A stretch of DNA of 25,775 nucleotides from Verrucomicrobiota bacterium. Its GTDB lineage: Bacteria; Verrucomicrobiota; Verrucomicrobiia; Chthoniobacterales; UBA6821. The notes beneath the pieces were generated by a model that ran no database searches, was not told the origin of the DNA, and saw nothing but the letters and a program-made list of their open reading frames with translations. How positions within the stretch are numbered: position 1 is the stretch's first letter; every line of letters starts with the position of its first letter. The stretch spans positions 1-25,775 of the forward strand of contig WBXG01000022.1 of NCBI GenBank assembly GCA_008932965.1. The letters are read 5' to 3'. The position numbers and the translations under genes are program-made. Positions 58 to 24,247 of the stretch are shown in pieces.

Positions 58-87
58 CAGAATCCGGCTTATCGCTAACGCACTCTA

Positions 88-126: not shown

Positions 127-160
127 ATCATCAAAACAGATGAATCAATCAAAATCATTA

Positions 161-340
161 ACCCGCATATTTCATACTGAATCGTCATGAGGCGCCGTGC
201 AAAGCTTATTAGTACAAGGAGGGCGAAGGATTGGGATGCCGGGCTGTATGTCTCATACTGCCCGAGGAAGACTTCGAGCTCAACGCATCATCCATCTGGC
301 TTCCCGGCTTCCGTTGTAGATCAGTATGAAATATGAGGGT
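161..340 (+). mobile_element. MITE-like repeat, copy A (180 bp, complete)
   Basis: Terminal inverted repeats are ACCCGCATATTTCATACTGA (161-180) and TCAGTATGAAATATGAGGGT (321-340). TA flanks both ends (159-160 and 341-342). The interior matches copies at 21342-21523 and 10935-11113. It holds no ORF. Confidence 0.8.
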
Positions 341-2897
341 TAGAACAAGCCCAACTAATGAGCTTCAACTCATGAGCCTGTAGCAAATAGGGATGGCTAG
401 GGATAACACGTACGTTCAAGCCGTAAGTACCACTCTCAGCTGCAGGAATTGTTGCAGCGTAGCGAAACACTCCCTCCGAAACAATCTCCTCAACCATCAT
501 TTCTTGAAGATGAGGAATGACCACCTTGTTTTTTTCTAGTGAACCAAAGTAGGTTTGGACCTGGACATCAGCAGGGCGAATTGAGCCTAGATGGACTAAT
601 GCATGAATTACAACATTTTCACCGACAAAGAAATCGTGGTGGCTTTCTTGATGAGCAATTCCATAATCAATGATCTTAATGTGAGACCAAAGCGAGGTCA
701 TTTTATTTTTCCAATGGCTGAGTTCATGAGCAGCTTTAAAATGATCCTGTTCCATTAAAGCGTAACCATGTGCCGCTGGTTCATAAAGCGTGGTGTTATA
801 TTCTTGAACCATACGATGGGTATTAAAAAGTGGAACTACAGTACGCATCGACTCCCGCATCGCTTGAATCCAAGCAAGTGGCAATCTTCCATCAGGCTTT
901 GCGTAATAGAGTGGCACAATCTGATTTTCGAGCAGACTAAAGAGGCTCGCGATATCTCCTTCATCCTGTTCTTCCTCAGTTCCACCAACCATATCACTAC
1001 CGATGGCCCAACCATTTTTTCCATTATAACTTTCCAACCACCAGCCATCTAAAACACTGAGATTGATACCACCATTAAGCGGAAGCTTCATTCCACTTGT
1101 GCCACTTGCCTCATAAGGGCGCAAAGGATTGTTCAGCCAGAGGTCACACCCTTGATAGAGTCGACGCCCAACATTGATGTCATAATCTTCCACAAAAATA
1201 ATACGATTTTCAAAAAGAGGATCGCGTGAATGGTTATAAACTTCTTGAATGATCTTTTTTCCTTCTTCATCAGCAGGGTGTGCTTTTCCAGCAAAAATAA
1301 ATTGCACAGGATGCTCCTTGTTAGTGACCAGACGTCGTAACCGCTCGGGATCGGTGAAGAGAAGAGCCCCTCTCTTGTAGGTTGCAAAACGTCTTGCAAA
1401 ACCAATCATCAAAACATCTCCATTGAGAAGATGATTCACTTCTCGAATGGTATCGGGAGGTTCTCCATTGCGAATACGTTGAGCTCGGACACGTTCACGC
1501 ATAAATTCAATGGTGCGATGCTTGAGAACTTGATGAAGATCCCATAGAACAGCATCTGGAATGTCGATCACCCCTCGCCAAAACTCCATATCGCTTTGTC
1601 GATCTTCCCAGTTTTTTCCAAGATATTTTTCGTAAAGATCATGAAACTCTCCAGCAGCCCAGGTCTTGGCATGCACTCCGTTAGTAATACTTATAATGGG
1701 AACTTCACTCACGGGAATATCCTTCCAAAGATCTTGCCACAAACCACGACTTACAGTGCCATGTAATTTACTAACACCATTGGCAAACCGGCTTGTTTTA
1801 AGAGCTAGCACGGTCATGCTAAAGAGGGCCTTAGGATCTGTTTCCATCTCTCCTAAGTGCATAAATTGATGCCACGAAATACCAACCTCTTCTGGGTAAT
1901 GTCCAAAGTAGGCCCTCATGAGCTCTTCACTGAAGGCATCATTCCCTGCAGGAACAGGGGTGTGAGTCGTAAAAATATTAGAAGCAGCAACGACTTGAAA
2001 TGCTGAAGAGAAATCGATCTCATTTTCTTTATTACGCACTAAGTCGCGAATTCTTTCTAACGAGAGAAAAGCAGAATGCCCTTCATTCATATGATAGACT
2101 TTAGGATGAATCCCAAGAGCCTTGAGGAGCTTCACCCCCCCCATCCCAAGAACGATTTCTTGTTGAATACGGAGTTCATTATTGCCTCCATAGAGTGTGG
2201 CTGAAATATGTTGATCTGTCGGTTTATTTTCAGGAATTGTTGTATCTAGTAAATAAATTTTAATACGCCCAAGTGCTATCTGCCAAACACGGGCAATTAC
2301 AAGGCGCCCCGGAAGAGGAATGCTTATTTTTAAGGGTTCATTATTGATTTTAACTTCCGTGATAGGAAGATAGTGAAAGACTTGGTTCAACTCCTTAGCC
2401 TCTTGCCATCCATGGCTATTGATCTGCTGCTTGAAATAACCATCACGATAGAGAAGCCCTACTGCTGTGAAATCCAACCCAAGATCTGAAGCCGACTTAC
2501 AATGATCTCCAGATAGAATCCCAAGCCCGCCAGAATAGTTAGGAAAGGACTCATGCAAACCATATTCAGCCGAAAAATAAGCGATAGAAGGATTTGATCT
2601 GGTAGAGGCATAGGTATCTTTACGAGAAAGATAATTATGAAAAGCAGTAATGACTTGTTTTAACTCTTTCAAGTAATGTTCATCCTGGCTGATCTCAATA
2701 AGTCGTGACTGACGGCAGAGCTGAAGCATTCGCACCGGGTTATGATTCGTCTCCTCCCATAAAGGAACATCTAGATCACGAAAAAGACGCCGCGCTGTTG
2801 GCTCCCAGCTCCACCACATATTATAAGCTAATTCTCGAAGAGGCTCGATTGACGAGGGGAGCTTTGGAATGACATTAAAGGTAACAAGTGGATTCAT
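321..2897 (-). CDS. glgP: Alpha-glucan (glycogen/maltodextrin) phosphorylase, GT35, long bacterial 'alpha-glucan family' type
   Basis: 858-aa ORF with the GT35 PLP-lysine signature EASGTSGMK and the motifs NEGHSAF and GGLGxLxGD. The last six codons and the stop lie inside the TIR of repeat copy A. Confidence 0.9.
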   Translation of the reverse strand: MNPLVTFNVIPKLPSSIEPLRELAYNMWWSWEPTARRLFRDLDVPLWEETNHNPVRMLQLCRQSRLIEISQDEHYLKELKQVITAFHNYLSRKDTYASTRSNPSIAYFSAEYGLHESFPNYSGGLGILSGDHCKSASDLGLDFTAVGLLYRDGYFKQQINSHGWQEAKELNQVFHYLPITEVKINNEPLKISIPLPGRLVIARVWQIALGRIKIYLLDTTIPENKPTDQHISATLYGGNNELRIQQEIVLGMGGVKLLKALGIHPKVYHMNEGHSAFLSLERIRDLVRNKENEIDFSSAFQVVAASNIFTTHTPVPAGNDAFSEELMRAYFGHYPEEVGISWHQFMHLGEMETDPKALFSMTVLALKTSRFANGVSKLHGTVSRGLWQDLWKDIPVSEVPIISITNGVHAKTWAAGEFHDLYEKYLGKNWEDRQSDMEFWRGVIDIPDAVLWDLHQVLKHRTIEFMRERVRAQRIRNGEPPDTIREVNHLLNGDVLMIGFARRFATYKRGALLFTDPERLRRLVTNKEHPVQFIFAGKAHPADEEGKKIIQEVYNHSRDPLFENRIIFVEDYDINVGRRLYQGCDLWLNNPLRPYEASGTSGMKLPLNGGINLSVLDGWWLESYNGKNGWAIGSDMVGGTEEEQDEGDIASLFSLLENQIVPLYYAKPDGRLPLAWIQAMRESMRTVVPLFNTHRMVQEYNTTLYEPAAHGYALMEQDHFKAAHELSHWKNKMTSLWSHIKIIDYGIAHQESHHDFFVGENVVIHALVHLGSIRPADVQVQTYFGSLEKNKVVIPHLQEMMVEEIVSEGVFRYAATIPAAESGTYGLNVRVIPSHPYLLQAHELKLISWACSNPHISY

Positions 2898-2923
2898 GGT
2901 TTTTTTGTGATTGTTTTATATTA

Positions 2924-3057
2924 ACACACCGGTCTACTACGGAAGCAGAGAAGTCGGATCGATACTTTGTTGAGCCCGAAGTTTTCCATGGGCAGTAGGG
3001 ACTCCAACAGCAGTCGTCAGACTTCTTCACGTTTCTTATCCCATCAGATATTCGGGT
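2924..3057 (-). mobile_element. MITE-like repeat, copy R (inverted orientation, decayed relic)
   Basis: Its reverse complement aligns with copy C and the right half of copy B (GAAGTCTGACGAC..., GGAGTCCCTACTGCCC..., CTTCCGTAGTAGACCGGTGTG). One TIR is truncated at GGTGTG. The other carries an internal deletion (ACCCGAATAT/CTGATGG). TA follows at 3058-3059. Confidence 0.65.
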
Positions 3058-3246
3058 TAAGAAACGCTCCCACGAGAGTTTATTTTTGAAAAAATTTTTT
3101 TAACAAATCTATTATTTTATAATTTTTTATTTTTGGAGATCGTAGGAGTATGAACCATTCAGGCTAGAAGATAACTTAAAAAACAAAATGATTTTCATTT
3201 TTTGATCGACTAGTGTGTTAATCAAAAGCATTCTACTTGGCTCTTA

Positions 3247-3277
3247 TTGTTCATAAATTTCACATAATCTTTATAAA
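3247..3277 (+). promoter_or_regulatory. Candidate sigma70-type promoter for tRNA-Tyr
   Basis: TTGTTC (3247-3252) lies 18-19 nt upstream of TTATAA/TATAAA (3271-3277), about 14 nt before the tRNA 5' end, in a very AT-rich spacer. This is pattern match only. Confidence 0.25.
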
Positions 3278-3290
3278 ACAATTTTAACAA

Positions 3291-3372
3291 GGGTAGGTAC
3301 CGAAGCGGTCAAACGGGGTGGACTGTAAATCCACTGGCTTAGCCTTCAAAGGTTCGAATCCTTTCCTGCCCA
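3291..3372 (+). tRNA. tRNA-Tyr (GTA anticodon), long variable arm, CCA not encoded
   Basis: Acceptor stem GGGTAGG/CCTGCCC with one G-U pair. Anticodon loop is CTGTAAA. It has a long extra arm and the T-loop GGTTCGAATCC. Confidence 0.9.
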
Positions 3373-3509
3373 GTTTATACCTGGTGATGCTCAAGCCAAG
3401 TCATCAATGCACTCTCCTTCAGTTATCAAGGAACTCGCAGCTCTAAGGAGCATAGTGATATGCTCTCCTCCATTGAAAAGGGGATAATTAAAAACGCTGA
3501 AATTTTTTA

Positions 3510-3792
3510 ACCCGAATATTTCATACTGATTGTGACAAGGAGGCCTCGAAAGGCTGATGGAGAACCACCGGCGGTCGGGAGACCGCAGGGGGAGACACTA
3601 CCACTGCCCTGCCCTATATCTTTAATCAGCTCTGAAAGGGCGAGATGAGCGGGAGCGAGCTAGTCAACGCAGACTACGTATTTTAAAGCAGAGCTGTGGG
3701 AGTCCCTACCGCCCAAGTCAAAATGGGAGTCTAACGCAGCATCAACTCTTGCTTCCCGGCTTTCTTAGGTGATCGATATGAAATATGTGGGT
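3510..3792 (+). mobile_element. MITE-like repeat, copy B (283 bp, enlarged variant)
   Basis: TIRs are ACCCGAATATTTCATACTGA (3510-3529) and TCGATATGAAATATGTGGGT (3773-3792). TA flanks both ends (3508-3509 and 3793-3794). It carries about 100 bp of extra central sequence compared with the 180-bp copies. Confidence 0.8.
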
Positions 3793-3867
3793 TATCACCC
3801 AGAGGCTTCCCTAATTCAAAAGGCCATTAGTCTGAAAGATCAGGGCCAGGCTCTGTGGCCTTCAGTA

Positions 3868-4323
3868 TTAAATGCGCTCTTCTTCGATATCATAGACATC
3901 GAAAAAAGAATAGACGGGACGATTCCGAGGAAGATACTTAGGAATATATTCCTCCATGTATTCTTGAAGATGATCTGGAAGCTCACTCATTCTTTTTCCA
4001 CGTAGATCATTGTTCCAACGAATGATTTCAATGGTTGGACGCAATGTTGAGTTAGTGGCAATCCATAGAGCGATCTCATCATCAGTAGCACCTGTTGCTA
4101 CAAATGCTTTAAATGAGTCATAGGAAATTCCTGCAAACTCTAGAAACATCATGTCTAAGGGACAACCAGAATGATAGTCACCTGAACAACCTACAATGAC
4201 CGAACGACATTTATCAACAGCACGAGCTGCAAGAACATAGCCAGCTAATGTTTCCCTCGGACTACGAGGAAATTCCTTGGAAAGATCTTTTGAAATGAGT
4301 TTGGTCTTTTCTATGGAATCCAT
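3868..4323 (-). CDS. DUF5069-like conserved hypothetical protein
   Basis: 151-aa ORF. Its N-terminal pattern PRSPRETLAGYVLAARAVDKCR resembles the DUF5069 family as I remember it. It starts 7 nt after the rpsT stop, so it is probably co-transcribed. Confidence 0.6.
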   Translation of the reverse strand: MDSIEKTKLISKDLSKEFPRSPRETLAGYVLAARAVDKCRSVIVGCSGDYHSGCPLDMMFLEFAGISYDSFKAFVATGATDDEIALWIATNSTLRPTIEIIRWNNDLRGKRMSELPDHLQEYMEEYIPKYLPRNRPVYSFFDVYDIEEERI

Positions 4324-4329
4324 AGAATT

Positions 4330-4722
4330 TTATTTTTTGGACTTAGATTTAATTTTGGCCCTGGCTCGGGATTTTTCTTTGGCACTCTCACCTCGAGCAG
4401 CTTTTACTTTCTTTACTAATTTTACCGGAGCAGCGGCACCAGGAGTCACTCTTGCATTAAAAAGACTTTTCTTACGAGCTGCTTTATTTTTGTGAAGCAC
4501 CCCTTTTTTGACAGCTTTATCGAGCATGCTGGAGAGTTGTTCAAAAACTTTTTTTAATTCGTCTGCCTCTCCTCCAAGGGCTTTAAGGACTTTTTTCTCC
4601 ATCGTTTTGAGACTTGTAGCAACACTGACATTACGTTCATGACGTACCGCCCCTTGTTTAGCACGTTTGGTTGCAGAGTCGCTTTTTTTGGGAGCTGTTT
4701 TAGAAGTATTAGATGATGCCAT
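4330..4722 (-). CDS. rpsT: 30S ribosomal protein S20 with N- and C-terminal basic extensions
   Basis: The S20-like core is TKRAKQGAVRHERNVSVATSLKTMEKKV...KGVLHKNKAARKKS. At 130 aa it is longer than typical S20 proteins, with a lysine-rich tail. Confidence 0.8.
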   Translation of the reverse strand: MASSNTSKTAPKKSDSATKRAKQGAVRHERNVSVATSLKTMEKKVLKALGGEADELKKVFEQLSSMLDKAVKKGVLHKNKAARKKSLFNARVTPGAAAPVKLVKKVKAARGESAKEKSRARAKIKSKSKK

Positions 4723-4829
4723 GATGGATGCTCGTTGATTGAATAATGTGTAGGTAAACTAGTGAAAGTAGGTGAAGCGTTATTGAACAGAATAGGAGAG
4801 GTTCCGTCGATAACTAACCATAGGAATCC

Positions 4830-4901
4830 TGCCAAGGGGGAGAATTGAACTCCCGACCAAGGGCTTATGAGTCCCCTGCTCTACCTCTGAGCTACCTTGG
4901 C
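4830..4901 (-). tRNA. tRNA with CAT anticodon (Met, or Ile2 read via lysidine), CCA not encoded
   Basis: The reverse complement is GCCAAGG-TA-GCTC-AGAGGTA-GAGC-A-GGGGA-CTCATAA-GCCCT-TGGTC-GGGAG-TTCAATT-CTCCC-CCTTGGC-A. The anticodon arm and variable region (GACTCATAA...CTTGGTC) resemble E. coli tRNA-Ile2 as I remember it. Confidence 0.8.
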
Positions 4902-4991
4902 ATTGAAGAGATGGGAAAGTAACATAGAGCTTGCGGGAGCGGAAGTGATTTTTATAAAAAATTGTTTCACGCCAGTTACCTTATAATTTTT

Positions 4992-5037
4992 GACGCTGGA
5001 GGGCTGAGAAGGCTGATGGGGGTGAAATATCCAGGCT
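4992..5037 (+). repeat. MITE-like repeat fragment H (internally deleted derivative)
   Basis: GACGCTGGAGGGCTGAGAAGGCTGATGGGGG matches the left subterminal arm of copies C and D. It joins directly to a right-TIR-like GTGAAATATCCAGGCT. There is no clear left TIR or TA flank. Confidence 0.4.
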
Positions 5038-5058
5038 CGGTATTTTCTGGAAAAAATT

Positions 5059-6594
5059 TTACAATGGAAGCATTTGATAATTTTTACACTCGTAAATAAT
5101 AAGGTGCTCACGTTGCTTGCCTCGTTGTAATGTTGCCTCACTTACAGGAGTAACGCTGGAGAAAGCACCAGAGATCGTCTCTGGGAGATCTTCAAGTAAT
5201 TCTGTTGTGATGTAGAGAGCTTGATGACCAATGAAGGGACTTGTTTTTGGTTCTTCCGTATAAAGTGGATCGATCACCCCTGAAGCTACTGCATCTGCAT
5301 AATGAGGCCACAACTGAAACTGGCTAGAGAAGGAGGGAGATTCTGGGGTGAAAACAGAAGGAGCTCCCTCAAGCTCAGAATAATGAATAGGAAGGAGGGC
5401 TCCTAAAAGAGAGGCGAGCTCTGGGGTCTGAGCAACAATAAAAGAGGGAGCAGAAGCTGCATTAGGATTAGTGGCAGCATCTTTTTCCAGCGCTCGCAAA
5501 CGAAGTAATTCTACAGCAACTTTTTGAACACCTCCTACCCCATGGTAGCTTGGAATCGACCAAGGCGAAGCGTTGTTAATAAAGGGAGCGATTTCCAAAA
5601 TCTGGAGTGCCGAAAAAATTGCTACCATAGAAAGCAGCACGAAACCATTTTTTGCTCTCCATTCTCTTTTAAGGAAAACGTCAACCACACTAGGAAGAAG
5701 CATCGCCCAAAGAACCAGCTGCAATCCGAATGAGGGGTTTTCATGTCCTACCCCCCCCAGACAAAACAAAAACGGAACGATTAATAAAAAAAGAAATGGG
5801 AGATTCTGTTTCTGATCTTTTTTTTCAGAAGAAAAAAGCAAATGACCCATGCTAAGAAAAGAGAATGTTAGTAGGAGCAAGAATTGCCAGAACCAAGGAG
5901 AAGATCGCACCATATCCCAGGAAGGAAAATCATAAGACCAAAAAGAACCCCATGTTATCTGACCCCACTGCAACCAGTCATGATGCATATTCCACCAAAT
6001 GGGCCCCACCCAGCTCAGGGCCAGTAGCAACAATGAAACTGTCATTCCCAGCCAGTCACACTTATTTTTTCTTAGAAGAAGGATTGCTAGGACTACTAGT
6101 AACAACCATCCCACCGAGTAGCTCACTTGAGTCGTCATTCCTAGGAGCAATCCATAAACGATCCAAGTAAAAAGACCTTTTTTATTATTACCAATTAAAA
6201 GCCAGCTCCACGAAAGTGTCGCGATCCAAAGAGTCGCTATAACCGTGGTTCCATCCATGATGAGAGCTGCTGAATTTGTTAGAGGAAGAAGATTCCATGC
6301 AAGCACACTCCAGAAGGCCACCCTCTCTCCATAAAGATTCCATGCAAGCCTCCAGAGAACAAAGGAGGCGAGCAACACAAGTAATGGAGATAGTAGTCTG
6401 ATACCCATTGGTGCAGATCCAGCGAGCCATGTGCTTAGTCTTATCAATGCTGGAACTCCAGCTGGTCCCTCTACAAAACCCCAGTCTAGACGTTGACCAC
6501 AAAGCAACAGGTATGCTTCAGTTCCATTTAAGAACCCTGTGGAAGCAAGAAGGAATCGACCTGCAGTTAATAGAGAAAGAATAATCCAGAGCAT
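5059..6594 (-). CDS. Polytopic GT-C glycosyltransferase (ArnT/PMT_2-like, GT39/GT83 type)
   Basis: 511-aa protein with many hydrophobic segments. The N-terminal loop motif TEAYLLLCGQRLDWGFVEGPAG resembles the (D/E)EAYY...WGY.D.PP loop of ArnT/PMT_2 enzymes. It is divergent from the ABC gene. Confidence 0.65.
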   Translation of the reverse strand: MLWIILSLLTAGRFLLASTGFLNGTEAYLLLCGQRLDWGFVEGPAGVPALIRLSTWLAGSAPMGIRLLSPLLVLLASFVLWRLAWNLYGERVAFWSVLAWNLLPLTNSAALIMDGTTVIATLWIATLSWSWLLIGNNKKGLFTWIVYGLLLGMTTQVSYSVGWLLLVVLAILLLRKNKCDWLGMTVSLLLLALSWVGPIWWNMHHDWLQWGQITWGSFWSYDFPSWDMVRSSPWFWQFLLLLTFSFLSMGHLLFSSEKKDQKQNLPFLFLLIVPFLFCLGGVGHENPSFGLQLVLWAMLLPSVVDVFLKREWRAKNGFVLLSMVAIFSALQILEIAPFINNASPWSIPSYHGVGGVQKVAVELLRLRALEKDAATNPNAASAPSFIVAQTPELASLLGALLPIHYSELEGAPSVFTPESPSFSSQFQLWPHYADAVASGVIDPLYTEEPKTSPFIGHQALYITTELLEDLPETISGAFSSVTPVSEATLQRGKQREHLIIYECKNYQMLPL

Positions 6595-6728
6595 AAGCGT
6601 CGCCTATCCTTACAACCGTTCCTTATGAGAAGCTATCATTTTTTAATAACCAGAGTAGGTCAAAAATGAGTCACACTTGAGTTTTATCTTTTTAAAAGGC
6701 AGAATCGTCCTTTTATCTGATTTTCCTC

Positions 6729-8507
6729 ATGACTCTCTATCTTCGTATTTTTCGTTATTTTCATCAATTTTTTTGGAAGACGCTTCTCTCCATTCTTCTG
6801 ATGACTGCAGGTGTGGGACTCAATTTGTTAAAGCCATGGCCATTCAAATATATCGTCGATGGAATTTTAGCCACGGAGGTCTCGGCCACAACGGCCTCGG
6901 CAAAAGCTTTTATGAGTACGTACTTGGGATGGACCTCACAAGTAGGAGCTGTGGTTTTTCTCTCAGCGACGCTCATTATTATCACACTACTATCGAGCCT
7001 CGTCACTCTTGTTACCAATATGCTTCTGCTTCGTATTGGCCTTCAAGGAACGTTAAAATTGCGCACCGATCTCTACAGTTGCCTGCAATCCTTGCCACTG
7101 AAGTATCATGATGCACGCCGCAGCAGCGATTCTTCTTACCGGGTTGCTTATGACTCACAATCAATTCAAACGATCTACAATAAAGGATTCTCAACCATCT
7201 TCAGCGCGCTCCTCATGTTAGTTGTCGCTTTTATCATCATGGTGAAGATGGATTGGAAACTGACCCTCATCTCACTTGTAGTACTTCCTCTTTTTGTGGT
7301 GAGCATGCGATATTATGCAGAGCGTATACGCAAAGAATCGACTTCGATTCAAGAGCGTGAGAGCGATCTCCTTGCAACAGCTCAAGAAGGTTTGAGCTCT
7401 ATAAGGATGATTCAATCCTTTGGTAGAGAAGCCTTCGAGGTCGATCAATTTCATCATCATGCCAAGCAAAGTTTAGAAGCCAACTTTCGCCTTAACATCA
7501 CCTCCACTCAAAGTGCCCTTGTAGTCGGCACCTTGATGGCACTGGGAACCTCCCTCATGTATGCGGTGGGGGCCCTACAGGTCTTACATTCGACACTCTC
7601 TCTTGGGGATCTCCTTGTGTTTGCCTCCTACCTCACGATGTTATATCAACCCATTGAGCAACTCACCTACACGGCATGGGCTCTTGAAGGAGCTGCAGCA
7701 GGGGCACAACGTTGCTTTGAAGTCCTTGATGAAAAAGAAGAAACTATCGATCTTCCAGAAGCAATTTCACTTAAACAGACCACAGGAGAAATTAGCTTCA
7801 CAGATGTTTCCTTCTCCTATACTCCAGCAAAAGCTGTTTTAAAAAATATTACTTTACTCATACCTCCTGGAGAGACAGTTGCTTTTGTTGGTGGCACAGG
7901 GACCGGCAAAAGCACTCTACTAAGTCTTATTCCGCGATTTTACGACCCCTGCAGTGGTCTTGTACGGATCGATGGACACGATCTTCGCACTCTGAGAAAA
8001 GAATCTGTTCGTCAACAAATCGGAATGGTCTTTCAAGAAACCGTTCTTTTTTCTTCTACCATTCATGAAAATATTGCCTATGGACGCGAAGGAGCCACTG
8101 ATGACGAAATCATCGAAGCAGCAAAACGCGCCAAAGCCTATGATTTCATTATGGGAATGCCTCATGGATTTGAAACTCATGTCGGAGAGCGTGGTGGACA
8201 CTTGAGTGTGGGCCAACGTCAACGCATCGGCATTGCCCGTGCTTTTCTTAAAAATGCACCTCTCCTGCTTCTCGATGAACCGACCTCAGCACTCGATCCA
8301 GAGACGGAAAAAGCCATCATGGAAACCATTTTTGAATTGATGCAAGGCCGCACGACCTTAATTGTTACCCACCGTATTTCAACAGTACATCGACTCAATC
8401 ATATTGTTGTTCTTAAAGAGGGTTCGATTTGCGAGCAAGGAAGTGGTGCTGAGCTACTGGCAGCAGGTGGAACCTATGCGCGTTTGTACAATGCAATGGG
8501 AAACTAA
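6729..8507 (+). CDS. ABC half-transporter, exporter type (MsbA/lipid-exporter-like, TMD-NBD fusion)
   Basis: 592 aa with an N-terminal six-helix-type TMD. Walker A is GGTGTGKST, the signature is LSVGQRQR and Walker B is LLLLDEPTSALD. Confidence 0.9.
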   Translation: MTLYLRIFRYFHQFFWKTLLSILLMTAGVGLNLLKPWPFKYIVDGILATEVSATTASAKAFMSTYLGWTSQVGAVVFLSATLIIITLLSSLVTLVTNMLLLRIGLQGTLKLRTDLYSCLQSLPLKYHDARRSSDSSYRVAYDSQSIQTIYNKGFSTIFSALLMLVVAFIIMVKMDWKLTLISLVVLPLFVVSMRYYAERIRKESTSIQERESDLLATAQEGLSSIRMIQSFGREAFEVDQFHHHAKQSLEANFRLNITSTQSALVVGTLMALGTSLMYAVGALQVLHSTLSLGDLLVFASYLTMLYQPIEQLTYTAWALEGAAAGAQRCFEVLDEKEETIDLPEAISLKQTTGEISFTDVSFSYTPAKAVLKNITLLIPPGETVAFVGGTGTGKSTLLSLIPRFYDPCSGLVRIDGHDLRTLRKESVRQQIGMVFQETVLFSSTIHENIAYGREGATDDEIIEAAKRAKAYDFIMGMPHGFETHVGERGGHLSVGQRQRIGIARAFLKNAPLLLLDEPTSALDPETEKAIMETIFELMQGRTTLIVTHRISTVHRLNHIVVLKEGSICEQGSGAELLAAGGTYARLYNAMGN

Positions 8508-8514
8508 TAACAGT

Positions 8515-9696
8515 ATGAAAAAAAAGAAAATTATCGTCTTAGGTTTTATGGGAGGATGCCCCATTGCAGGTGTTATCTGGCAGCACCTCCACTACATCAT
8601 AGGACTTCAGCGTCTGGGGCATGAAGTATTTTACGTGGAGGATACCTCCCGCTTTCCTTACAACCCTGCAACCTTTGATATTTCTGATGATTACAGTTAT
8701 GCAATTCAAACATTAACTGCATTATCCCAAGAATATAGCTTTGAAGGGAAATGGGCCTACTGTGCACGCTACCGTGATCCACTGGAAATAACTGGAATAG
8801 AGCACTCCAAACTCCTAGAGCTTTACCGCACATGTGATGCTGCTCTTAACATCTGTGGTTCCCATGATTTGAATGAGGATCTAAGTCTTATCCCCCATCT
8901 TCTCTACGTTGAAAGTGATCCAGGAGTAGAGCAAATTAAGATAGATCAAAAAAATCAAGCCACTATCTCTTTTCTTTCTAACCATGAACATCTTTTTACC
9001 TTTGGTGAGCATGTTGGAACGCCTTCTTTTGTAGTTCCAACACACGATTTCAAATGGCTTCCGACACGTCAACCCATTGTCACCTCCCTTTGGTGTAATA
9101 CTCCCGCTGCTCTACCACCAACCGAGGAAGCCCGCTACACCTCGATTTGCAATTGGTCCACTAGTGGCAAGAAAGATATTCTTTGGAATGACTCCAACTA
9201 CCTCTGGAGCAAGTCGCTGGAATTTTTAAAATTTGTCGAGGCTCCTAAAAAGTGTGGAGAAACTTTTGAACTTGCTTCTGATATCAAAAAGGAAGAGGAA
9301 CAGCAGCTTTTCTTAAACAACAACTGGCGATTGGTTTTACCACATGATTTAAGCACTCATTGGAAAAGCTATCATCATTATATCTCTTCTTCGAAGGGAG
9401 AATTCACCTGTGCCAAGGACCAATATGTTCGGCTTCATACCGGATGGTTTAGCGATCGGAGTGCTTGTTATTTGGCTGCAGGCCGGCCAGTCATCACCCA
9501 AGAAACTGGATTTAGCGATTTTTATGGCACTGGCTATGGGCTTGTTGGATTTTCTAGTATGGAAGAAATTGTAGAAGCCGCACGCTCCATCCAAGCTGAT
9601 TATGCAAAACATTCGCAAGCTGCTCTTGACATCGCTCGTGAGTACTTCGAAGCAGAAAAAGTACTTGAATCCTTGTTAGAGAGAGCGGGAGTTTAA
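8515..9696 (+). CDS. Uncharacterised GT-B-like protein, paralog 1 (putative glycosyltransferase)
   Basis: I trimmed the start to ATG 8515 (MKKKKIIVLGF...), 8 nt after the ABC stop. The longer ORF from 8362 overlaps the ABC gene. The N-terminus is GFMGGCPIAGV...LQRLGHEV. The C-terminus is GWFSDRSACYLAAGRPVITQETG, similar to the GT1/Glyco_trans_1_2 nucleotide-sugar lobe. It is a clear paralog of 9742-10935. Confidence 0.6.
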   Translation: MKKKKIIVLGFMGGCPIAGVIWQHLHYIIGLQRLGHEVFYVEDTSRFPYNPATFDISDDYSYAIQTLTALSQEYSFEGKWAYCARYRDPLEITGIEHSKLLELYRTCDAALNICGSHDLNEDLSLIPHLLYVESDPGVEQIKIDQKNQATISFLSNHEHLFTFGEHVGTPSFVVPTHDFKWLPTRQPIVTSLWCNTPAALPPTEEARYTSICNWSTSGKKDILWNDSNYLWSKSLEFLKFVEAPKKCGETFELASDIKKEEEQQLFLNNNWRLVLPHDLSTHWKSYHHYISSSKGEFTCAKDQYVRLHTGWFSDRSACYLAAGRPVITQETGFSDFYGTGYGLVGFSSMEEIVEAARSIQADYAKHSQAALDIAREYFEAEKVLESLLERAGV

Positions 9697-9741
9697 CCTG
9701 GATATTTCCTTTTTTAAAAAAAACCAAGAATACTCTTTAAA

Positions 9742-10935
9742 ATGTCTTTCCTCAAATCTACAAGAACTCCGCTACCACCTGTTTTTATTGGCTGTGGATT
9801 TGCAGCAAAATATCCGATGGGAGGTGGCAATTTTTCTGTTCCTTTGCAATACCTTCTTGGTCTCAAGCGTCTGGGTCGACGTGGCATCTGGCTTGAGGTG
9901 ATGCCGGAGACAGATGATCCTACACTCGATGCCTCGCGAGCACGGACCTTTACAAGACGCATGAGGGAGTATGACCTTGAATACTACCTCCTCATTCAAC
10001 CCAAAGCGTTTCAGAAAAAAAACCCGGAAGAATATCATCTCTCTCAAATGCAAAGCTTCGGAATGGATGTTTCTACATTACGTGAAGAGGCCAAGCATGG
10101 CATTCTTTTGAACCTGAGCTATTCTATCAAGGCCCCTCTCCTAACACTTTTTGAAAGGCGTTTACTCTGCAGCCTAGATCCAACAGAAGTTATTTTTTGG
10201 ATGAGTCGAATGGAGATGGGACAATCGTTTCATCATGAGTTCTGGTCAGTCGGCCTCTGCATGGAATCGATCGATTCCCGGATTCCAAAAGCCATTGTCC
10301 CTTGGAAATCTTTTTTTCCACTCGTGGATACAACCTTTCTTCAAGCACAACCCAAACCACTTTTTAAAACACGCCCCCGTTTTACTACTATTGGACAGTG
10401 GTACTGGGACGGAGCAATTGAAATCGAAGGAACCTATGTCGATTTTTCTAAACAAGCTGCCTTTGCTCCGTATCTCGAATTACCTCAAAAAGTTCCTAAT
10501 GCTATTTTTGAACTTGCCATGAATCTCAATAGTGACGATCCAGAACGAAAGCGCCTTCGTCAACTCGGATGGAACGTCGTCTCCCCTCACCGCTTGATGC
10601 CAACACCCAAGCGTTATTACGATTATCTTGCAGGTTCCCTTGCTGAATTTACTGCAGTCAAACTGGAAAGCAAAATGCAAAGTGGCTGGCTCAGTGACCG
10701 TGCAGCAGCCTACCTAGCCCAAGGTCGTCCAGTGATCACCGAACCAACAGGTGCAGAACAATTCCTTCCCAAAAAATCAAGTGAAAGTGGTCTTTTTTTT
10801 GTACAAACACTTGAGGAGGCCATTGAAGCATCACGCGAAGTCCTTCTTGACTGGCCCCATCTTTCGAAGTCAGCAAGAGCAACAGCAATCGAATATTTTG
10901 ATGCCTCACGAACATTGAAAAAAATATTGAACTAG
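9742..10935 (+). CDS. Uncharacterised GT-B-like protein, paralog 2 (putative glycosyltransferase)
   Basis: 397 aa. It shares LxGLxRLG, the F(T)TI..W block, the FELA block and GWLSDRAAAYLAQGRPVITEPTG with paralog 1. Its TAG stop (10933-10935) is formed at the junction with repeat copy C. Confidence 0.6.
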   Translation: MSFLKSTRTPLPPVFIGCGFAAKYPMGGGNFSVPLQYLLGLKRLGRRGIWLEVMPETDDPTLDASRARTFTRRMREYDLEYYLLIQPKAFQKKNPEEYHLSQMQSFGMDVSTLREEAKHGILLNLSYSIKAPLLTLFERRLLCSLDPTEVIFWMSRMEMGQSFHHEFWSVGLCMESIDSRIPKAIVPWKSFFPLVDTTFLQAQPKPLFKTRPRFTTIGQWYWDGAIEIEGTYVDFSKQAAFAPYLELPQKVPNAIFELAMNLNSDDPERKRLRQLGWNVVSPHRLMPTPKRYYDYLAGSLAEFTAVKLESKMQSGWLSDRAAAYLAQGRPVITEPTGAEQFLPKKSSESGLFFVQTLEEAIEASREVLLDWPHLSKSARATAIEYFDASRTLKKILN

Positions 10936-11113
10936 CTCGCATATTTCATACTGATCGTAACGAGAAGGCCGCGAAGGCTGATTGGGCAAGGCGAGCGATG
11001 AAGTCTGACGACATATGCTCGTGTGCACACTGCCTGAGGAGGACTTCGAGATCAACAAAGCATCTACCATGGATTTCCGGCTTCCGTAGATGATCGGTGT
11101 GAAATTTTCGGGC
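10935..11113 (+). mobile_element. MITE-like repeat, copy C (179 bp, complete)
   Basis: TIRs are GCTCGCATATTTCATACTGA and TCGGTGTGAAATTTTCGGGC. TA lies at 10933-10934 and 11114-11115. It sits inside the co-directional gene block, between paralog 2 and the SPT-like gene. Confidence 0.8.
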
Positions 11114-11231
11114 TAGAGCTTGCATTAGTCCTATTTTTGATTAGCATAATATTTTAGGATTTATTAAACACCACCAATCACACAAGTGGCACTCATTTTT
11201 GACTGTAACCGAGGAGCTCACCATCCACTAA

Positions 11232-13569: not shown

Positions 13570-13645
13570 CCCGGATGTTTCATACTAATCGTGACGAGGA
13601 GGTTGTGAAGTCTGATGGGGTGAGGCGGGCGATTAAAAAGTCTCT
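13569..13645 (+). mobile_element. MITE-like repeat, copy D (left half only, about 77 bp)
   Basis: ACCCGGATGTTTCATACTAATCGTGACGAGGAGGTTGTGAAGTCTGATGGGGTGAGGCGGGCGAT aligns with the left arm of copy C. There is no right TIR. TA at 13567-13568 is part of the TAA stop of the GNAT gene. Confidence 0.65.
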
Positions 13646-13657
13646 TCACAAAAAAAA

Positions 13658-14035
13658 CTATTTTTCTTTCTTTTGCTTGTCTGTTTTTGATGGAGGAGTC
13701 TTTTCTTTAAGAGGGCTCTTATGAGCAACTGTCGATTTTACTTCGCTCGTGGCTGAAGATTTTTTTTCTGAAGCAGGTGCTGTTGATACTTCTGAAGAAG
13801 TATCACTTTTAGCAGCACTTTTGTAACCTTCACTTCGATAATCAGTGATATAAAAACCAGATCCTTTGAAAATAAGACCGGCCCCTGCTCCAATTAATCT
13901 TTTCACTTTTCCTTTGCCCCATTTTTTCATCTGACAATGTTCTTTAGGACAGGTGCTATAAACATCAGAAGACATGGTTTGAAAAGCATCAAAATGATGG
14001 TGGCATTTGTGACATTCGTATTCGTAGGTAGGCAT
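13658..14035 (-). CDS. FmdB-family zinc-ribbon protein
   Basis: It starts MPTYEYECHKCHHHFD, with a second CxxxxC pair and the conserved GSGFYITDYRS motif. The C-terminal tail is low-complexity and S/K-rich. Confidence 0.8.
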   Translation of the reverse strand: MPTYEYECHKCHHHFDAFQTMSSDVYSTCPKEHCQMKKWGKGKVKRLIGAGAGLIFKGSGFYITDYRSEGYKSAAKSDTSSEVSTAPASEKKSSATSEVKSTVAHKSPLKEKTPPSKTDKQKKEK

Positions 14036-15224: not shown

Positions 15225-15295
15225 TTATTATTTGAAGTAAGGGCGAGGAGTTTATTTCTTGCAGCCTCGGAGCTCAAGAATTAATCATAAAAAGA

Positions 15296-15784: not shown

Positions 15785-16004
15785 TGGAGCCATTCCTTAA
15801 GCCATGATAGCCCTAGAAGGAGCGATACAGACTACTCTGATTAGTTTCAAAAACTACATCCGGACTAGATTTAGGATGGATCCAAGAGTCAAGAAAACTT
15901 CTAGTAAAAATAAAAATTCGTTTTTAAAAATTGTCCACTTGCAGGTAGAGGCTAACTAGTTTTAGATGAAGGCTAGCAACCAGCTTCGAAAGGAGGCGAA
16001 ATTC

Positions 16005-16121
16005 ATGAAAATCACAAAAATTATTGCACTCGTCGCTTTAGCGGCAGCAGCTCTTACACTTGGAGCATGTCAGTGCCACAAACAGGCACCAGCACCAGCA
16101 ATGACTGGACGTTCCAAATAA
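16005..16121 (+). CDS. Small putative lipoprotein (38 aa), absent from the supplied ORF track
   Basis: ATG lies 7 nt after AGGAGG. The product is MKITKIIALVALAAAALTLGACQCHKQAPAPAMTGRSK, a signal peptide with lipobox LGAC. A hairpin terminator follows. Confidence 0.55.
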   Translation: MKITKIIALVALAAAALTLGACQCHKQAPAPAMTGRSK

Positions 16122-16159
16122 GAGACATCGGATTTTTTATCTGGTGATTTACTTTAGGA

Positions 16160-16195
16160 GGTCGGGCAACTTATGTTGTCCGGCCTTCTTTTTTG
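16160..16195. terminator. Terminator hairpin shared by convergent genes
   Basis: GGTCGGGCAAC (16160-16170) pairs with GTTGTCCGGCC (16175-16185), with two G-U pairs and loop TTAT. It is followed by TTCTTTTTTG on the + strand. The 753-aa gene on the minus strand ends at 16196. Confidence 0.6.
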
Positions 16196-18457
16196 TTAAA
16201 AGTCTTTAGATGTAGTGGCATCATAAAGAAATCGATTCCAATGATTTATTTCATCACTTGCTAAATTATATTTATCCTGAAAATTCTCATGAAATTTTGG
16301 AGGAAGTTTTGAAATGGCGTTGGATTGTACATCCCTTGCTCTTGATAATAAGTAAATAGCTTTTTTTATGTTATATAATCTCGACTGACTTAAATAATCA
16401 GGTTCCTCATGCATCACATCAGAATCATCATCGCTAGAATTAGATGACCAATCTTCATGAAAATAACAATTTTCTGTAGCATAAGCGGCGATTAGATGGG
16501 CTTCTTCTCCCTCACTCCAGCTTATTTCACTTTCCCAAAAAATAATTTCATATTCTACTTCCTCTAACCAATCATGCAGCATTTGATCATTATCTTGATG
16601 AGAGACGTGAGCTGAAAGTTCGTTGATTATTTTAGAAATAACTCCTTTCACAGAGCGGTAGGATGCTTGAGTATCATAGATTGCATCTCTTGCTTTCATC
16701 CAATTTAGATGAAATTTTTCTTCAAGTGAATCTCTATGAGTTGCTTCACAACTCAACAATTGAGCGACTTTTTCATGGCCTAATGCCCGGCGAAAAAGCC
16801 CCTCAATATTCCAGTAATCAAGGCTATTTTTAGCTTCAACAATCTCATCTGAAAATTCTTTCAAGCATGAATCATTACGAAGAGCTAACTGATGCCTATG
16901 CACGATATCTTTCCACAAATGAGCTAAATGTTCTGCAGAGTCAATGGCCTGGTTAAAAGAGTCCTCAAGAACTTCCAAAGAAGGAAGATCTGAAAAATCC
17001 AGTTCCTTCATCATTGATTCAAAGTCTGTTTGGTCTTTTTGCTCGAGTTCTTCTGCTTTTTTCAAATCAATTTGAATTTCCCAATAATCTAGCCAAAAGT
17101 CCCCTTTCCAAAAATTCTTTTTTTCCTCCACAGAACCTAGAAGCTGTTTCCAACCTTGAATACTCTTTTCTGAATTATTGTCTCTCTGTTCCATCATAAT
17201 CTCATAATGAATCATCAGTGTGAGCTTGTCCCACGAAACTAATACTCTGTCATGAGATTCCTTACTGGTATTCCATAGGCTTCTTATTTCTAAAGGCTTT
17301 AATTCAGAGGAAGTTTTCTTTAAAAATTGATTTTTAAAATCATGATATGTTTGTTCTTCACGAGTTATGAGATTTTTAAAAATTCTTTCAACTGATTTTT
17401 TTTTCTCTTGCTTTGAAAGTATGCGCCTTGAGGTAAGAGAGAGTATTTCTTTTTTATTTTTTAGAATATCCATCGTTTCATGATATTTTCCAAAAATCTG
17501 TTGCTCTTCTTCGAACTGGCGAGCCATCGCAATCCTCTGGAATGCCTTCGCTTTTAACCCTGGTAATTCACTTTGAATAGAATCTATCTCATTACTTCCT
17601 ACGAAACTTATTCTGATATCCTCATCAGATCTAGCAGCTGTTCCTAAAGGAGGGGATATTCTTCTTGTAGTTTCACCTGTTTCACTATTTGGAATCTTAC
17701 TGAGGTCAGTAATAGAATCTGGCATTCTAGGATGTTGAGAATTTCCTCTTAAAATGGAGTCGTTGTTGATTGGCTTTTTTACTACTACAATTCCACCTGC
17801 CAAAAGACTCACCACAAGTCCAATGATCTCGTCGACAAATTCATTAGCTACTATTATCGGACTGGGGCCAACTTGAGGAATAATGCTTGAGCTATTGTGA
17901 AACTCATAATGTATTGCATTAGATTTAAGATCATGATCTATTGAATAAGATGAAATTTTATTTGTATTATTGAATGCAGAAAAATTAATTTCATCATTGT
18001 TTGCATCGATGCACTGATGAGTTTTTATCTCATCTCTTTCATATTCACTGAGTGATAAGGCACTAGATTGCCCCCTTTTTATATTGAACCAATGAGAATA
18101 TTGGAATGCATCATTATAACTCATCACAGGGAATCTATACTCGCTTTGATGTAGTAGAGGTTGATAAACGTAATACCCAGGGGAACCAAAACGGACAATA
18201 GGAACTCTTATGATTCCTGAGGGTTCCTGTTCAAAAATTCCATAAGGATCCTGCGATACCTCTTCATTTAAAAAATCACAATAATCAAGAATCTTTTGTG
18301 AATTTTCATTTTCTAAATAATCATCATTCTTAGAAGCCGTGGATGGCTGATCTGCTCTTACTTGAATGACAAAAAGAGAGCTTGAAGCAATCAAAGTTAA
18401 GAGTAAAAAAGCAGCAAAGTATTTTTTTTTTAAAAACAGATATCTGTTCATAGTCAA
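16196..18457 (-). CDS. Orphan 753-aa membrane-anchored protein (signal peptide, about 190-aa exo-domain, one TM segment, about 525-aa Trp-rich helical region)
   Basis: This long uninterrupted ORF begins with the signal or anchor sequence FAAFLLLTLIASSSLFVIQVRA. A mid-protein TM segment reads IIGLVVSLLAGGIVVV. I recognise no family. By eye the DNA is more AT-rich than its neighbours. Confidence 0.6.
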   Translation of the reverse strand: MTMNRYLFLKKKYFAAFLLLTLIASSSLFVIQVRADQPSTASKNDDYLENENSQKILDYCDFLNEEVSQDPYGIFEQEPSGIIRVPIVRFGSPGYYVYQPLLHQSEYRFPVMSYNDAFQYSHWFNIKRGQSSALSLSEYERDEIKTHQCIDANNDEINFSAFNNTNKISSYSIDHDLKSNAIHYEFHNSSSIIPQVGPSPIIVANEFVDEIIGLVVSLLAGGIVVVKKPINNDSILRGNSQHPRMPDSITDLSKIPNSETGETTRRISPPLGTAARSDEDIRISFVGSNEIDSIQSELPGLKAKAFQRIAMARQFEEEQQIFGKYHETMDILKNKKEILSLTSRRILSKQEKKKSVERIFKNLITREEQTYHDFKNQFLKKTSSELKPLEIRSLWNTSKESHDRVLVSWDKLTLMIHYEIMMEQRDNNSEKSIQGWKQLLGSVEEKKNFWKGDFWLDYWEIQIDLKKAEELEQKDQTDFESMMKELDFSDLPSLEVLEDSFNQAIDSAEHLAHLWKDIVHRHQLALRNDSCLKEFSDEIVEAKNSLDYWNIEGLFRRALGHEKVAQLLSCEATHRDSLEEKFHLNWMKARDAIYDTQASYRSVKGVISKIINELSAHVSHQDNDQMLHDWLEEVEYEIIFWESEISWSEGEEAHLIAAYATENCYFHEDWSSNSSDDDSDVMHEEPDYLSQSRLYNIKKAIYLLSRARDVQSNAISKLPPKFHENFQDKYNLASDEINHWNRFLYDATTSKDF

Positions 18458-18504
18458 AAGGAATAAAATAATCTTCTATGATATTAGTATGACTACATTA
18501 ACTT

Positions 18505-19293: not shown

Positions 19294-19315
19294 GAAAATA
19301 AAGTCATCACTTTTA

Positions 19316-20017: not shown

Positions 20018-20086
20018 AAGAAAAGAATATCAATACAAGCTGCCATATTAAATTCTCTTTATGGAAACCAAAGATAATTTCTCATG

Positions 20087-20107
20087 AATCCGAATATTTC
20101 ACTTCGA
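20087..20107 (+). repeat. Solo TIR-like fragment G of the MITE-like family
   Basis: AATCCGAATATTTCACTTCGA matches the left TIR of copy B, preceded by its flanking A at 3509 (AACCCGAATATTTCATACTGA), at 16 of 21 positions. It overlaps the TGA stop (20099-20101) of the MFS gene. No interior sequence is present. Confidence 0.35.
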
Positions 20108-21319: not shown

Positions 21320-21341
21320 GATTTATGCTCATATTTTCTTC

Positions 21342-21523
21342 AACCGTGTATTTCATACCGAAGTGTTATGAGACTATGAGCGAAGCTGATGAGTACAAGG
21401 AGAGCAAAGGGTTGTGATGCCGGGCTGTATCTCTTGCTACTGCCCGAGGAAGACTTAGAGCTTGGGCGCAGCATCCAGCTGGCTTCCCGACCTCCGCAGT
21501 AGATTGGTACGAAATATGCGGGT
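21342..21523 (+). mobile_element. MITE-like repeat, copy E (182 bp, complete, closest to copy A)
   Basis: TIRs are AACCGTGTATTTCATACCGA and TTGGTACGAAATATGCGGGT. The interior AGTACAAGGAG.GC.AAGG.TTG.GATGCCGGGCTGTAT...CTGCCCGAGGAAGACTT.GAGCT is nearly identical to copy A. TA is present at the right end only (21524-21525). It lies between the divergent MFS and catalase genes. Confidence 0.8.
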
Positions 21524-21578
21524 TAAGTAGAGGAGTATCAAATATACAGGTTAGTATTCACAATAAATTCCAAGTGCT

Positions 21579-23021: not shown

Positions 23022-23084
23022 AGAAACACTAAAGATAATTTCAGAACTTCCCCAAGACAAAGAGAATGACCAAAATAATTTCTA

Positions 23085-23621: not shown

Positions 23622-23643
23622 TTTCAATAAAGAGGACCCAGAT

Positions 23644-24189
23644 TTATTTCGTAGGAACAAATTCAGTAATTTTGGTCCCTTGTATACTTAAGGATGCCAT
23701 CAGCCCACGCTGACTAAAAAAGAGAGCATACATTCCATGTTGGAGTGTTGTTGTGGAAAATGATCCTGAAGCTCCTGCATCTAAAACGACTAAGCTTGGA
23801 GCTCCCCCAAGTTCAAAGCCATCACTTTTTTGAAGATAGCTCAGTGCTTCCTGGTTCATAAAAAAGAGTGCATATCCAAAACGTTGAATTCCTGCTTGCA
23901 GACCATAGGAAGCAGAGGAGGTATTATAATAACCGGCAACTTTTCCTTCACGAAAGAGAACTCCATCTCCACGTCCTGCTCCAAAAATCAATGCACCTTT
24001 AATAATTTCTGGAAAAACAAGAACAGCTATTGCCTTATTTCCCAATTCAGCTGCTTTAGGATTATTTTTATAAAGCCGGGTCAATGCTTCTTCTGATTTT
24101 TTTTCAAGCTTCTGTGAGCTCCACGCCATGGACTGCTCTGAGCAAAGAAGAAGCACCAGTAGCGTGAGGAGTAAGGTTATTTTTTTCAT
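23644..24189 (-). CDS. Secreted SYLF/Ysc84-like (DUF500) domain protein
   Basis: The signal peptide is MKKITLLLTLLVLLLCSEQSMA. The Gly-rich beta pattern (GAGRGDGVL...SYGLQAG...LGGAPS...GASG) resembles SYLF domain proteins as I remember them. Confidence 0.55.
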   Translation of the reverse strand: MKKITLLLTLLVLLLCSEQSMAWSSQKLEKKSEEALTRLYKNNPKAAELGNKAIAVLVFPEIIKGALIFGAGRGDGVLFREGKVAGYYNTSSASYGLQAGIQRFGYALFFMNQEALSYLQKSDGFELGGAPSLVVLDAGASGSFSTTTLQHGMYALFFSQRGLMASLSIQGTKITEFVPTK

Positions 24190-24205
24190 GGTTATTTTTT
24201 AAGTT

Positions 24206-24247
24206 AGCCCGAATATTTCATGCTGAAGGGTTGTTAGAGACTCCTCT
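24206..24247 (+). repeat. MITE-like repeat fragment F (left TIR plus about 20 nt)
   Basis: GCCCGAATATTTCATGCTGAAGGGTTGTTAGAGACT matches the left end of copy E. It is preceded by TA (24204-24205). It is cut off exactly at the 3' end of tRNA-Lys. Confidence 0.6.

Follow-up and report, generated by a model that had tools for sequence, protein, structure and literature searches.

The repeats dispersed over a 25,775-nt stretch of contig WBXG01000022.1 from a bacterium of the phylum Verrucomicrobiota, the whole of which is referred to here as the window, are very probably copies and decay products of a family of non-autonomous DNA transposons, i.e. a miniature inverted-repeat transposable element (MITE). 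Nine copies or fragments (A to H and R) had been listed in a preliminary description of the window as non-coding, TA-flanked units with terminal inverted repeats. A scan with the terminal-repeat pattern CCCGNATATTTCATACTGA, allowing up to three mismatches, gave 10 matches in the window against 0.05 expected, and repeat finding on the window recovered the same units. As judged by a profile search (nhmmer, with a model built from 43 full copies), seven of the nine (A, R, B, C, D, E and F) are statistically solid; H scored weakly (E = 0.21) and draws its support from a relative, and G was not significant. The repeat family is thus real, and its elements account for ~3.6% of the window. The MITE-like character of the units and the TA flanks of the window copies were confirmed, and no ORF (open reading frame) bearing a Pfam domain was found within the units.

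The unit is laid out as YTA-RCCCGNATATTTCATACTGA ... TCAGTATGAAATATNCGGGY-TAR, with a modal length of 182 bp from TA to TA and a long class of ~265-300 bp. Each end carries a 22-nt terminal inverted repeat, (R)CCCGNATATTTCATACTGA and its complement; these outermost 22 nt hardly vary among copies, and the two ends pair with one another. Strict invariance is confined to the tips, CCCG...CGGG, and position 3 is variable. The earlier proposal that the whole unit folds as a long hairpin holds for the termini, which pair well, but not for the arms, which are only ~65% complementary in the 66 full copies. RNAalifold retained the terminal stem in 43 of 43 aligned copies together with a small central hairpin of 5 bp, GGCTGTATG...CATACTGCC, and detected no conserved pairing of the arms.

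Subfamilies, of which at least two had been recognised, do exist but do not form simple lineages. The copies are mosaics in which several types of left and right arm occur in varying combinations as interchangeable half-elements, and in some copies the left arm is a reversed right arm. Copy B, described previously as an enlarged variant, is not unique but belongs to a long subfamily that is also present in other species: full-length homologues of 267-283 nt with ~71-73% identity were found in loci L075, L060, L032 and L059, and B-like copies in two metagenome-assembled genome (MAG) species and in a close relative. Another MAG contains copies of B-like length with a different interior.

Copies are abundant outside the window. 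In a terminal-repeat scan of one genome per species, dozens of loci, at least, were found in four Chthoniobacterales MAG species, and among the matches listed only isolated ones occurred elsewhere, none of which was recovered by the element profile. The carriers are these four MAG species, the species of the window and one close relative. The fetched loci and the window together gave 160 profile matches, including 66 full copies; one MAG contributed 83 matches over 240 kb and a second one 42 over 99 kb. Elements constitute 2.4-6.3% of the sampled DNA, values that are upper estimates since the loci were fetched because they carry a copy. In a set of 80 metagenome loci (703 kb) with relatives of the 397-aa protein encoded in the window, copies were present only in the two at 83% identity, and none was found in the 78 loci (~0.7 Mb) of relatives at ≤75% protein identity, nor in the syntenic loci L100 and L101. 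The absence from more distant relatives fits the invasion of one clade, and the family is confined to a narrow group of uncultured freshwater Verrucomicrobia. The window locus was also recovered at 99.4-100% identity from NCBI, ENA, JGI and Logan assemblies with the same copies present; hence, the repeats are no artefact of assembly.

A profile of the translated element matched 168 proteins among 5.8 billion. The best 120 of these 168 are 45-105 aa long, lack Pfam domains and are mostly unnamed or 'hypothetical' MAG ORFs; those with a name are 'hypothetical' ORFs from MAGs of Chthoniobacterales and other Verrucomicrobia, and no host protein was among these 120, none of which exceeds 105 aa. 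The family accounts for such short spurious 'hypothetical proteins' in these MAGs, as well as for contig breaks, strain-level indels and possibly chimeric joins at the repeats.

Of the 132 ends of full copies, 129 have the dinucleotide TA. Directly adjacent copies share a single TA at 9 of their 10 junctions, never TATA, as expected if the later element inserted into the target duplication left by the earlier one. In locus L098, a complete 183-bp copy with TTAA on each side is nested in a long-form element, and uninterrupted homologues of the latter carry a single TTAG or TTAA at that site, e.g. TGGCT-TTAG-GGGGCAG. The PMT_2 gene of L098 likewise holds a copy, which is absent in the window and in L100 and whose left junction is blurred by a 3-nt deletion. 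Comparison of filled and empty sites, including the nested copy and the shared TA at junctions, thus supports a TA-centred target duplication, as had been proposed. The outer long-form element of L098 was observed to contain in addition a 10-nt insertion, TATCTTATAG, within its left terminal repeat (11100-11136).

The conserved context extends beyond the TA. The base outside it is a pyrimidine in 99% of 128 flanks, the tetramers being TTAA (69), CTAG (33), TTAG (13) and CTAA (9), so that TTAA makes up 54% of ends and CTAG 26% of flanks. The outer base tracks the inner one, T occurring with A and C with G: ends with an inner A were C-flanked in 0 of 36 cases and those with an inner G in 16 of 27. 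In 47 of 62 copies, the same tetramer stands on the left and on the right (TTAA 29, CTAG 13, TTAG 4 and TTAC 1), and these include five copies with perfect non-palindromic 4-bp direct repeats (TTAG/TTAG in four and TTAC/TTAC in one). Eight copies fit end complementarity only and show no 4-bp repeat.

Two models of the duplicated target, a 2-bp (IS630-like) and a 4-bp (IS5, IS701 or IS1380/piggyBac-like) one, are about equally likely, and in our estimate an IS630-type transposase with a 2-bp TA duplication and a family with a 4-bp YTAR/TTAA duplication each fall somewhat short of an even chance. Every informative pair of filled and empty sites involves the palindromic TTAA, which tells against any firm assignment of the duplication length, because palindromic tetramers do not discriminate between the two models.

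The units may be MITEs derived from IS630/Tc1-mariner elements with a strict 2-bp TA duplication, as the preliminary description proposed, but this attribution is not supported and stays tentative. The TA is invariant and is shared once between tandem copies. IS630 prefers TA within CTAG, which is the tetramer in 26% of the flanks, and the PMT_2 junction in L098 requires a single 3-nt deletion if the inner A is element-derived, compared with two events in the 4-bp model. However, a target base should not track the transposon tip, whereas the outer pyrimidine, present in 99% of flanks, co-varies with the inner base. The five perfect non-palindromic 4-bp direct repeats and the restriction of truly invariant tips to CCCG...CGGG also argue against a 2-bp duplication, and no IS630-type gene or matching autonomous element was found in the loci and collections searched.

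No less tentatively, the duplication may comprise the 4-bp YTAR, with CCCG...CGGG as the element proper, mobilised by a 4-bp-duplicating family such as the IS5 group, IS701 or IS1380. Duplication of the entire YTAR as target DNA would account more simply for the co-variation of outer and inner bases. The counts of the four main tetramers, the identity of left and right tetramers in most copies, the five non-palindromic pairs included, and the invariance of the CCCG/CGGG tips next to a variable position 3 are all in favour of this model. The IS5 group targets YTAR, and TTAA combined with CCC/GGG tips is the hallmark of piggyBac. There is literature on both remaining candidates: IS701 generates target duplications of exactly 4 bp (PMC2266710), and IS1380 transposases are distant prokaryotic relatives of piggyBac (PMC10140906). 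On the other hand, the eight copies that fit end complementarity lack a 4-bp repeat, although each could have arisen by a single transition; the TA model derives the PMT_2 junction slightly more easily; no IS5-, IS701- or IS1380-type transposase was found in the loci and collections searched; and the resemblance to piggyBac is tentative.

Some of the results weigh against the conclusion that the repeats belong to a mobile family. In an all-against-all comparison of 91 loci (~0.63 Mb), no multi-copy ORF of at least 150 aa was found other than translated elements; the ten ORFs located beside solo ends correspond to housekeeping genes or have no Pfam match, with no transposase among them; and no transposase is among the best 120 of the 168 matches to the translated element. 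Copies from one genome are at most 97% identical to each other, and both of the indels that could be resolved at strain or species level are products of recombination between adjacent copies, with no clean insertion. In addition, copy C is 92.8% identical between the window and the orthologous site in L098, while the flanking gene is 74% identical at fourfold sites; the conservation of C beyond fourfold sites is better accounted for by constraint or gene conversion than by free decay.

The search for an autonomous partner was extended to other collections. None of the ORFs of the window resembles a transposase according to the gene tables, which list ordinary genes, in agreement with the earlier description. 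Viral contigs gave four matches of terminal-repeat length only, consistent with chance, and nothing relevant was found in plasmid and phage records. Overall, no autonomous element with the same ends was detected in the element-bearing loci (~0.63 Mb), the viral contigs, the plasmid and phage records or the best 120 of the 168 matches to the translated element, in a search that was not exhaustive.

The behaviour of the units in reading frames is determined by their ends. On both strands, the first bases of the unit read TA(A/G) and a TGA follows at positions 20-22, so that translation is halted promptly in two of the three phases. Of the 28 ORFs with 100 codons or more that enter a full copy, 15 stop on the terminal TAA/TAG, six stop on the TGA, six read through the whole copy and one reads through in a different way. 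An insertion adds a net 180 bp, equivalent to 60 codons, and no interior stop occurs in the read-through frame (frame 2) of 58-60% of copies, compared with 14% of shuffled sequences. In the window, stop codons are supplied by C, D and the relic at 9693 via TAA/TAG, and to glgP via the TGA inside A. Most full copies lie at gene ends or between genes, and ~10% are inside ORFs. The copy in PMT_2 of L098 adds a predicted 59-aa insert (TRLFHTDSAAACEHLMD...) that is absent from the window and L100, and further in-frame copies occur in a PMT paralogue, in several large ORFs and in a GlnD, one of the six read-through ORFs, where the copy lies between the HD and ACT domains and the ACT domain downstream of it stays in frame. 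The orientation of copies relative to genes is unbiased (14:14).

The age of the family was assessed from orthologous sites. The site of C carries a copy in the window and in L098 and a decayed remnant in L031; at 9693, where the window retains a relic, L098 still has one and a half copies; and the interval that contains H has a partial copy in L098. The orthologous copies at these three places appear to predate the species splits. Non-orthologous copies from different species reach 96% identity, and the sampled host proteins are ~82% identical. This conservation suggests that copies are still being replaced from a conserved source, that they undergo gene conversion, or that some of them are under selection. 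The repeated bursts of activity suggested previously are not borne out: no sign of a very recent burst was seen, given the 97% ceiling on identity within genomes, the apparent age of the orthologous copies and the nature of the polymorphisms, which represent recombination.

In six strains with 99.4-100% identity, all copies are in common except for a tandem duplicate of A in L093, where two A copies share one TA. A clean insertion was considered and rejected for this duplicate, which is explained by recombination or assembly collapse. It was rejected also for the 182-bp indel that distinguishes L114 from L115, which lies between duplicated half-elements and results from recombination between the duplicated halves. 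The 9693 position of the window was similarly considered as an empty site; a relic is present there instead.

Among explanations other than a mobile family, the one with most to commend it holds that the family no longer moves and that selection maintains it as an intergenic hairpin repeat with a structural or regulatory role, the transposon-like ends being of historical significance only. The hairpin, of DNA or RNA, would then have one of the functions suggested for REP and ERIC, namely in termination, mRNA stability or nucleoid organisation. The conservation of orthologous C relative to fourfold sites, the 96% identity of non-orthologous copies in species with ~82% identical host proteins, the lack of a transposase in the loci and collections searched and the lack of near-identical copies within a genome all agree with this explanation, and single copies fold better than shuffled sequences (z = -4.5 and -3.8). 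We nevertheless regard it as unlikely. Copies show no orientation bias (14:14), their arms are only ~65% complementary, RNAalifold supports the terminal stem only, with a covariation term of -1.44 kcal/mol, and G-U exceeds A-C only modestly (388 vs 298). A simple consensus scan of positions 1-14000 of the window, which include A, R, B, H, C and D, detected no hairpin of the whole element with a T-run behind it, its only hits being short stems that overlap B and C at their right ends, and the scan for promoters and terminators gave nothing above the shuffled expectation. Selection at the RNA level was accordingly tried and set aside, given the terminal stem as the only one kept in 43 copies, the modest G-U excess and the unbiased orientation. 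Moreover, copies also occur within ORFs, many are decaying (H, the 9693 relic and the L031 remnant), and close relatives exist without any copies. A purely functional hairpin repeat, improbable though conceivable for some copies, would leave the ORF-internal copies, the decay products and the absence from close relatives unexplained.

A combined origin is given a similarly low probability. The repeats could be the footprint of a TTAA/CTAG-targeting, 4-bp-duplicating transposon with CCC...GGG tips and IS1380/piggyBac- or IS701-like chemistry, the copies of which would have been shaped and partly maintained by host-level selection as well. The traits joined in this doubtful account would be a frame-neutral length of 180 bp, stops in two phases, a translatable third phase and 93-96% conservation across species that lack the transposase.

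That the units are genes for structured non-coding RNAs, or artefacts of metagenome assembly, is highly improbable, because, although single copies fold stably and the assemblies are metagenomic, no copy had an Rfam match at the gathering score or at E ≤ 1, covariation is slight, copies lie in both orientations and within ORFs, and the same copies recur in the independent assemblies. As a check on the MITE assignment, a known structured RNA had been looked for on every copy with the same negative outcome in Rfam; on the window as a whole, a known RNA family was rejected as an explanation, Rfam having returned only tRNAs, the cut-off 3' end of RNase P RNA and weak noise.

For a MITE family, as preferred here, the following course of events may be proposed. 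As we infer it, transposase, transposase family and present-day mobility included, a DDE-type enzyme supplied in trans would bind both ends of the unit and insert it at a YTAR tetranucleotide, with TTAA preferred over CTAG and CTAG over TTAG/CTAA. Insertion would duplicate the central TA or the whole tetranucleotide. Where the TA falls on codon positions 1-2, the element supplies TAA or TAG immediately; one phase further on, translation ends after six codons on the TGA of the terminal repeat; and in the third phase, exactly 60 codons are added in a largely stop-free frame. The end sequences make most insertions harmless to genes. Subsequent change occurs mainly by recombination, giving rise to TA-sharing tandem arrays, half-element mosaics, internal deletions with solo ends and rearrangement breakpoints.

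The family is a new MITE family in Verrucomicrobiota and a familiar kind of selfish DNA; literature searches returned no MITE described in this phylum. Correia elements of Neisseria, ERIC/IRU of enterobacteria and RUP of Streptococcus pneumoniae are bacterial MITEs of ~100-180 bp that duplicate TA, and the units resemble them in being short, non-coding, TA-flanked, dispersed and mostly intergenic, with terminal inverted repeats. To our knowledge, no cognate transposase is in hand for Correia or ERIC. The present family differs from these three in its phylum and apparently in its end sequence. It differs further in its YTAR flank with co-varying outer and inner bases, in a duplication that may be of 4 bp, and in arms that are only ~65% complementary with no promoter or terminator signal detected. 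Tc1-mariner and IS630 elements share with it the TA at the centre of the target and, in IS630, the palindromic tetranucleotide context CTAG, but no IS630-type transposase or matching autonomous element was found here. With piggyBac/IS1380 it has in common TTAA as the commonest flank (54% of ends) and the CCC...GGG tips that form the piggyBac signature. This likeness is a lead only; CTAG makes up a quarter of the flanks in this family, and no such transposase was found.

In the tolerance of in-frame copies that add peptide to genes, the family is similar to the palindromic repeats of other bacteria, namely the Rickettsia palindromic elements (RPE) and the Coxiella MITEs (PMC5896051). The 59-aa insert in PMT_2, the copies in GlnD and in the PMT paralogue, and the depletion of stops in the read-through frame correspond to the RPE pattern at the sequence level. 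Unlike RPE, the present family has only ~10% of its full copies in ORFs, clear terminal inverted repeats and a TA/YTAR duplication. Two features of the family stand out, the YTAR target, possibly of 4 bp, and a translatable design that limits damage. It offers a compact natural example of selfish-element ends that limit damage to genes, in which two phases meet stop codons and the remaining one stays open for 60 codons. A 4-bp duplication of TTAA/CTAG, if true, would point to an unrecognised bacterial transposase with piggyBac-like target choice.

The individual copies of the window are on the forward strand, except for R. Copy A (159-342) is a full copy of 184 nt from TA to TA (profile E = 3e-49) with 22-nt ends that are 95% complementary and a predicted RNA fold of -71 kcal/mol (z = -4.5). 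It is located directly behind the 3' end of rnpB and its terminator, and the stop codon TGA of glgP (321-323, minus strand) falls within its right terminal repeat. The window opens with the 3' end of a bacterial class A RNase P RNA (model positions 278-367, E = 0.007), with a score below the gathering score because the gene is cut off by the window start; a strong terminator-like hairpin follows at 88-119, with A directly behind. In L092 (1-418), the DNA to the left of A is unrelated to positions 1-158 of the window and contains a Peptidase_S8 gene in place of rnpB. The break is exactly at the element end and the terminal repeat is slightly different there, as would result from an element-mediated rearrangement or a chimeric contig.

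Copy R (2920-3058, minus strand; profile match 2925-3047, E = 2e-20) is truncated and reversed. It lies upstream of glgP, and both its terminal repeats have internal deletions. Copy B (3508-3794; profile matches 3663-3794, E = 3e-24, and 3508-3561, E = 1.5e-10) is 287 nt long and consists of a standard element with an internal module of ~100 nt; it is situated between the tRNA-Tyr gene and a DUF5069 gene. Upstream of B, a 56-bp stretch that is single in the window (3437-3492) is perfectly duplicated in tandem in L093 (3640-3751). Three relics were found in addition to the nine copies listed previously. The first (3803-3846; repeat family D1, 63%; profile E = 0.019) is another right end that directly follows B.

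Relic H (4992-5037, E = 0.21), between the tRNA-Met gene and PMT_2, is composed of a left-arm fragment and a right-end fragment, is internally deleted and carries a left-arm motif (repeat family D7). A 144-nt copy with the same unusual CCTGG/CCAGG variant is present in L098 (9160-9303) in the same interval between PMT_2 and tRNA-Met, at the opposite end of the interval from H. The H region aligned poorly, and its alignment with L098 and L100, which was poorly chosen, was uninformative except for the common CCTGG variant.

The second additional relic (9693-9710) is a left terminal repeat, TTAACCTGGATATTTCC, that is not significant alone (profile E = 11). Its TAA is the stop codon of the upstream gene for a 406-aa product, and the orthologous site in L098 holds a full element and a second partial one that share a TA; the relic is the remnant of two elements that persist at that site. 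Between the element pair and the 397-aa gene, L098 has ~350 nt of DNA with no counterpart in the window; an ORF of 111 aa without a Pfam match was called in it (3778-4113).

Copy C (10933-11115) is full, with 183 nt and CTAG on both sides (profile E = 9e-44), and ORF 9742-10935 ends on the TAG with which it starts. Copy D (13567-13645; profile match 13567-13634, E = 6.5e-15) is a left half only, the first three bases of which, TAA, are the stop codon of ORF 12418-13569. Candidate G (20087-20107), a terminal-repeat-like 21-mer with ~16 of 21 matches by eye (profile E = 0.65-3.3), is positioned at the stop codon of a major facilitator superfamily (MFS) gene; it is without orthologous support and is doubtful.

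Copy E (21340-21525; profile match 21343-21525, E = 3e-39) is full, 186 nt long and present in all strains examined, with a decayed left end (TCAACCGTG) and 78-83% identity to A over aligned segments. It occupies the divergent intergenic region between MFS and catalase genes. The third additional relic (21527-21553) is possibly a second right end, GAGTATCAAATATACAGGTTA, abutting E, and is weak (profile E = 3). Copy F (24204-24247; profile match 24205-24227, E = 0.003) is a left end only with TTAG as flank and one mismatch to the terminal-repeat pattern, and it abuts the 3' end of the tRNA-Lys gene.

Four genes of the window, 8362-9696, 9742-10935, 12418-13569 and 16196-18457, have no Pfam match on record, and their products are of ~406, 397, 350 and 751 aa, respectively. 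Many metagenome contigs encode relatives of the 397-aa protein, down to ~50% identity, and many of these contigs belong to the sample series that also gave the lake contigs. An Rfam match to the ribosomal protein L20 leader (16114-16197, 30.4 bits vs a gathering score of 58.7, E = 0.023), immediately upstream of the large ORF 16196-18457 on the opposite strand, is below threshold and probably due to chance. About 3 kb beyond the right end of the window, a partial element is followed by tandem repeats of ~150 bp located between a gene for a 188-aa product and rho (L106 9222-9500, L109 9044-9520 and L110 9027-9600). The number of these repeats varies by strain, with ~1.3 units in L106 and ~3.3 in L110, and the sequence of L109 includes a run of N.

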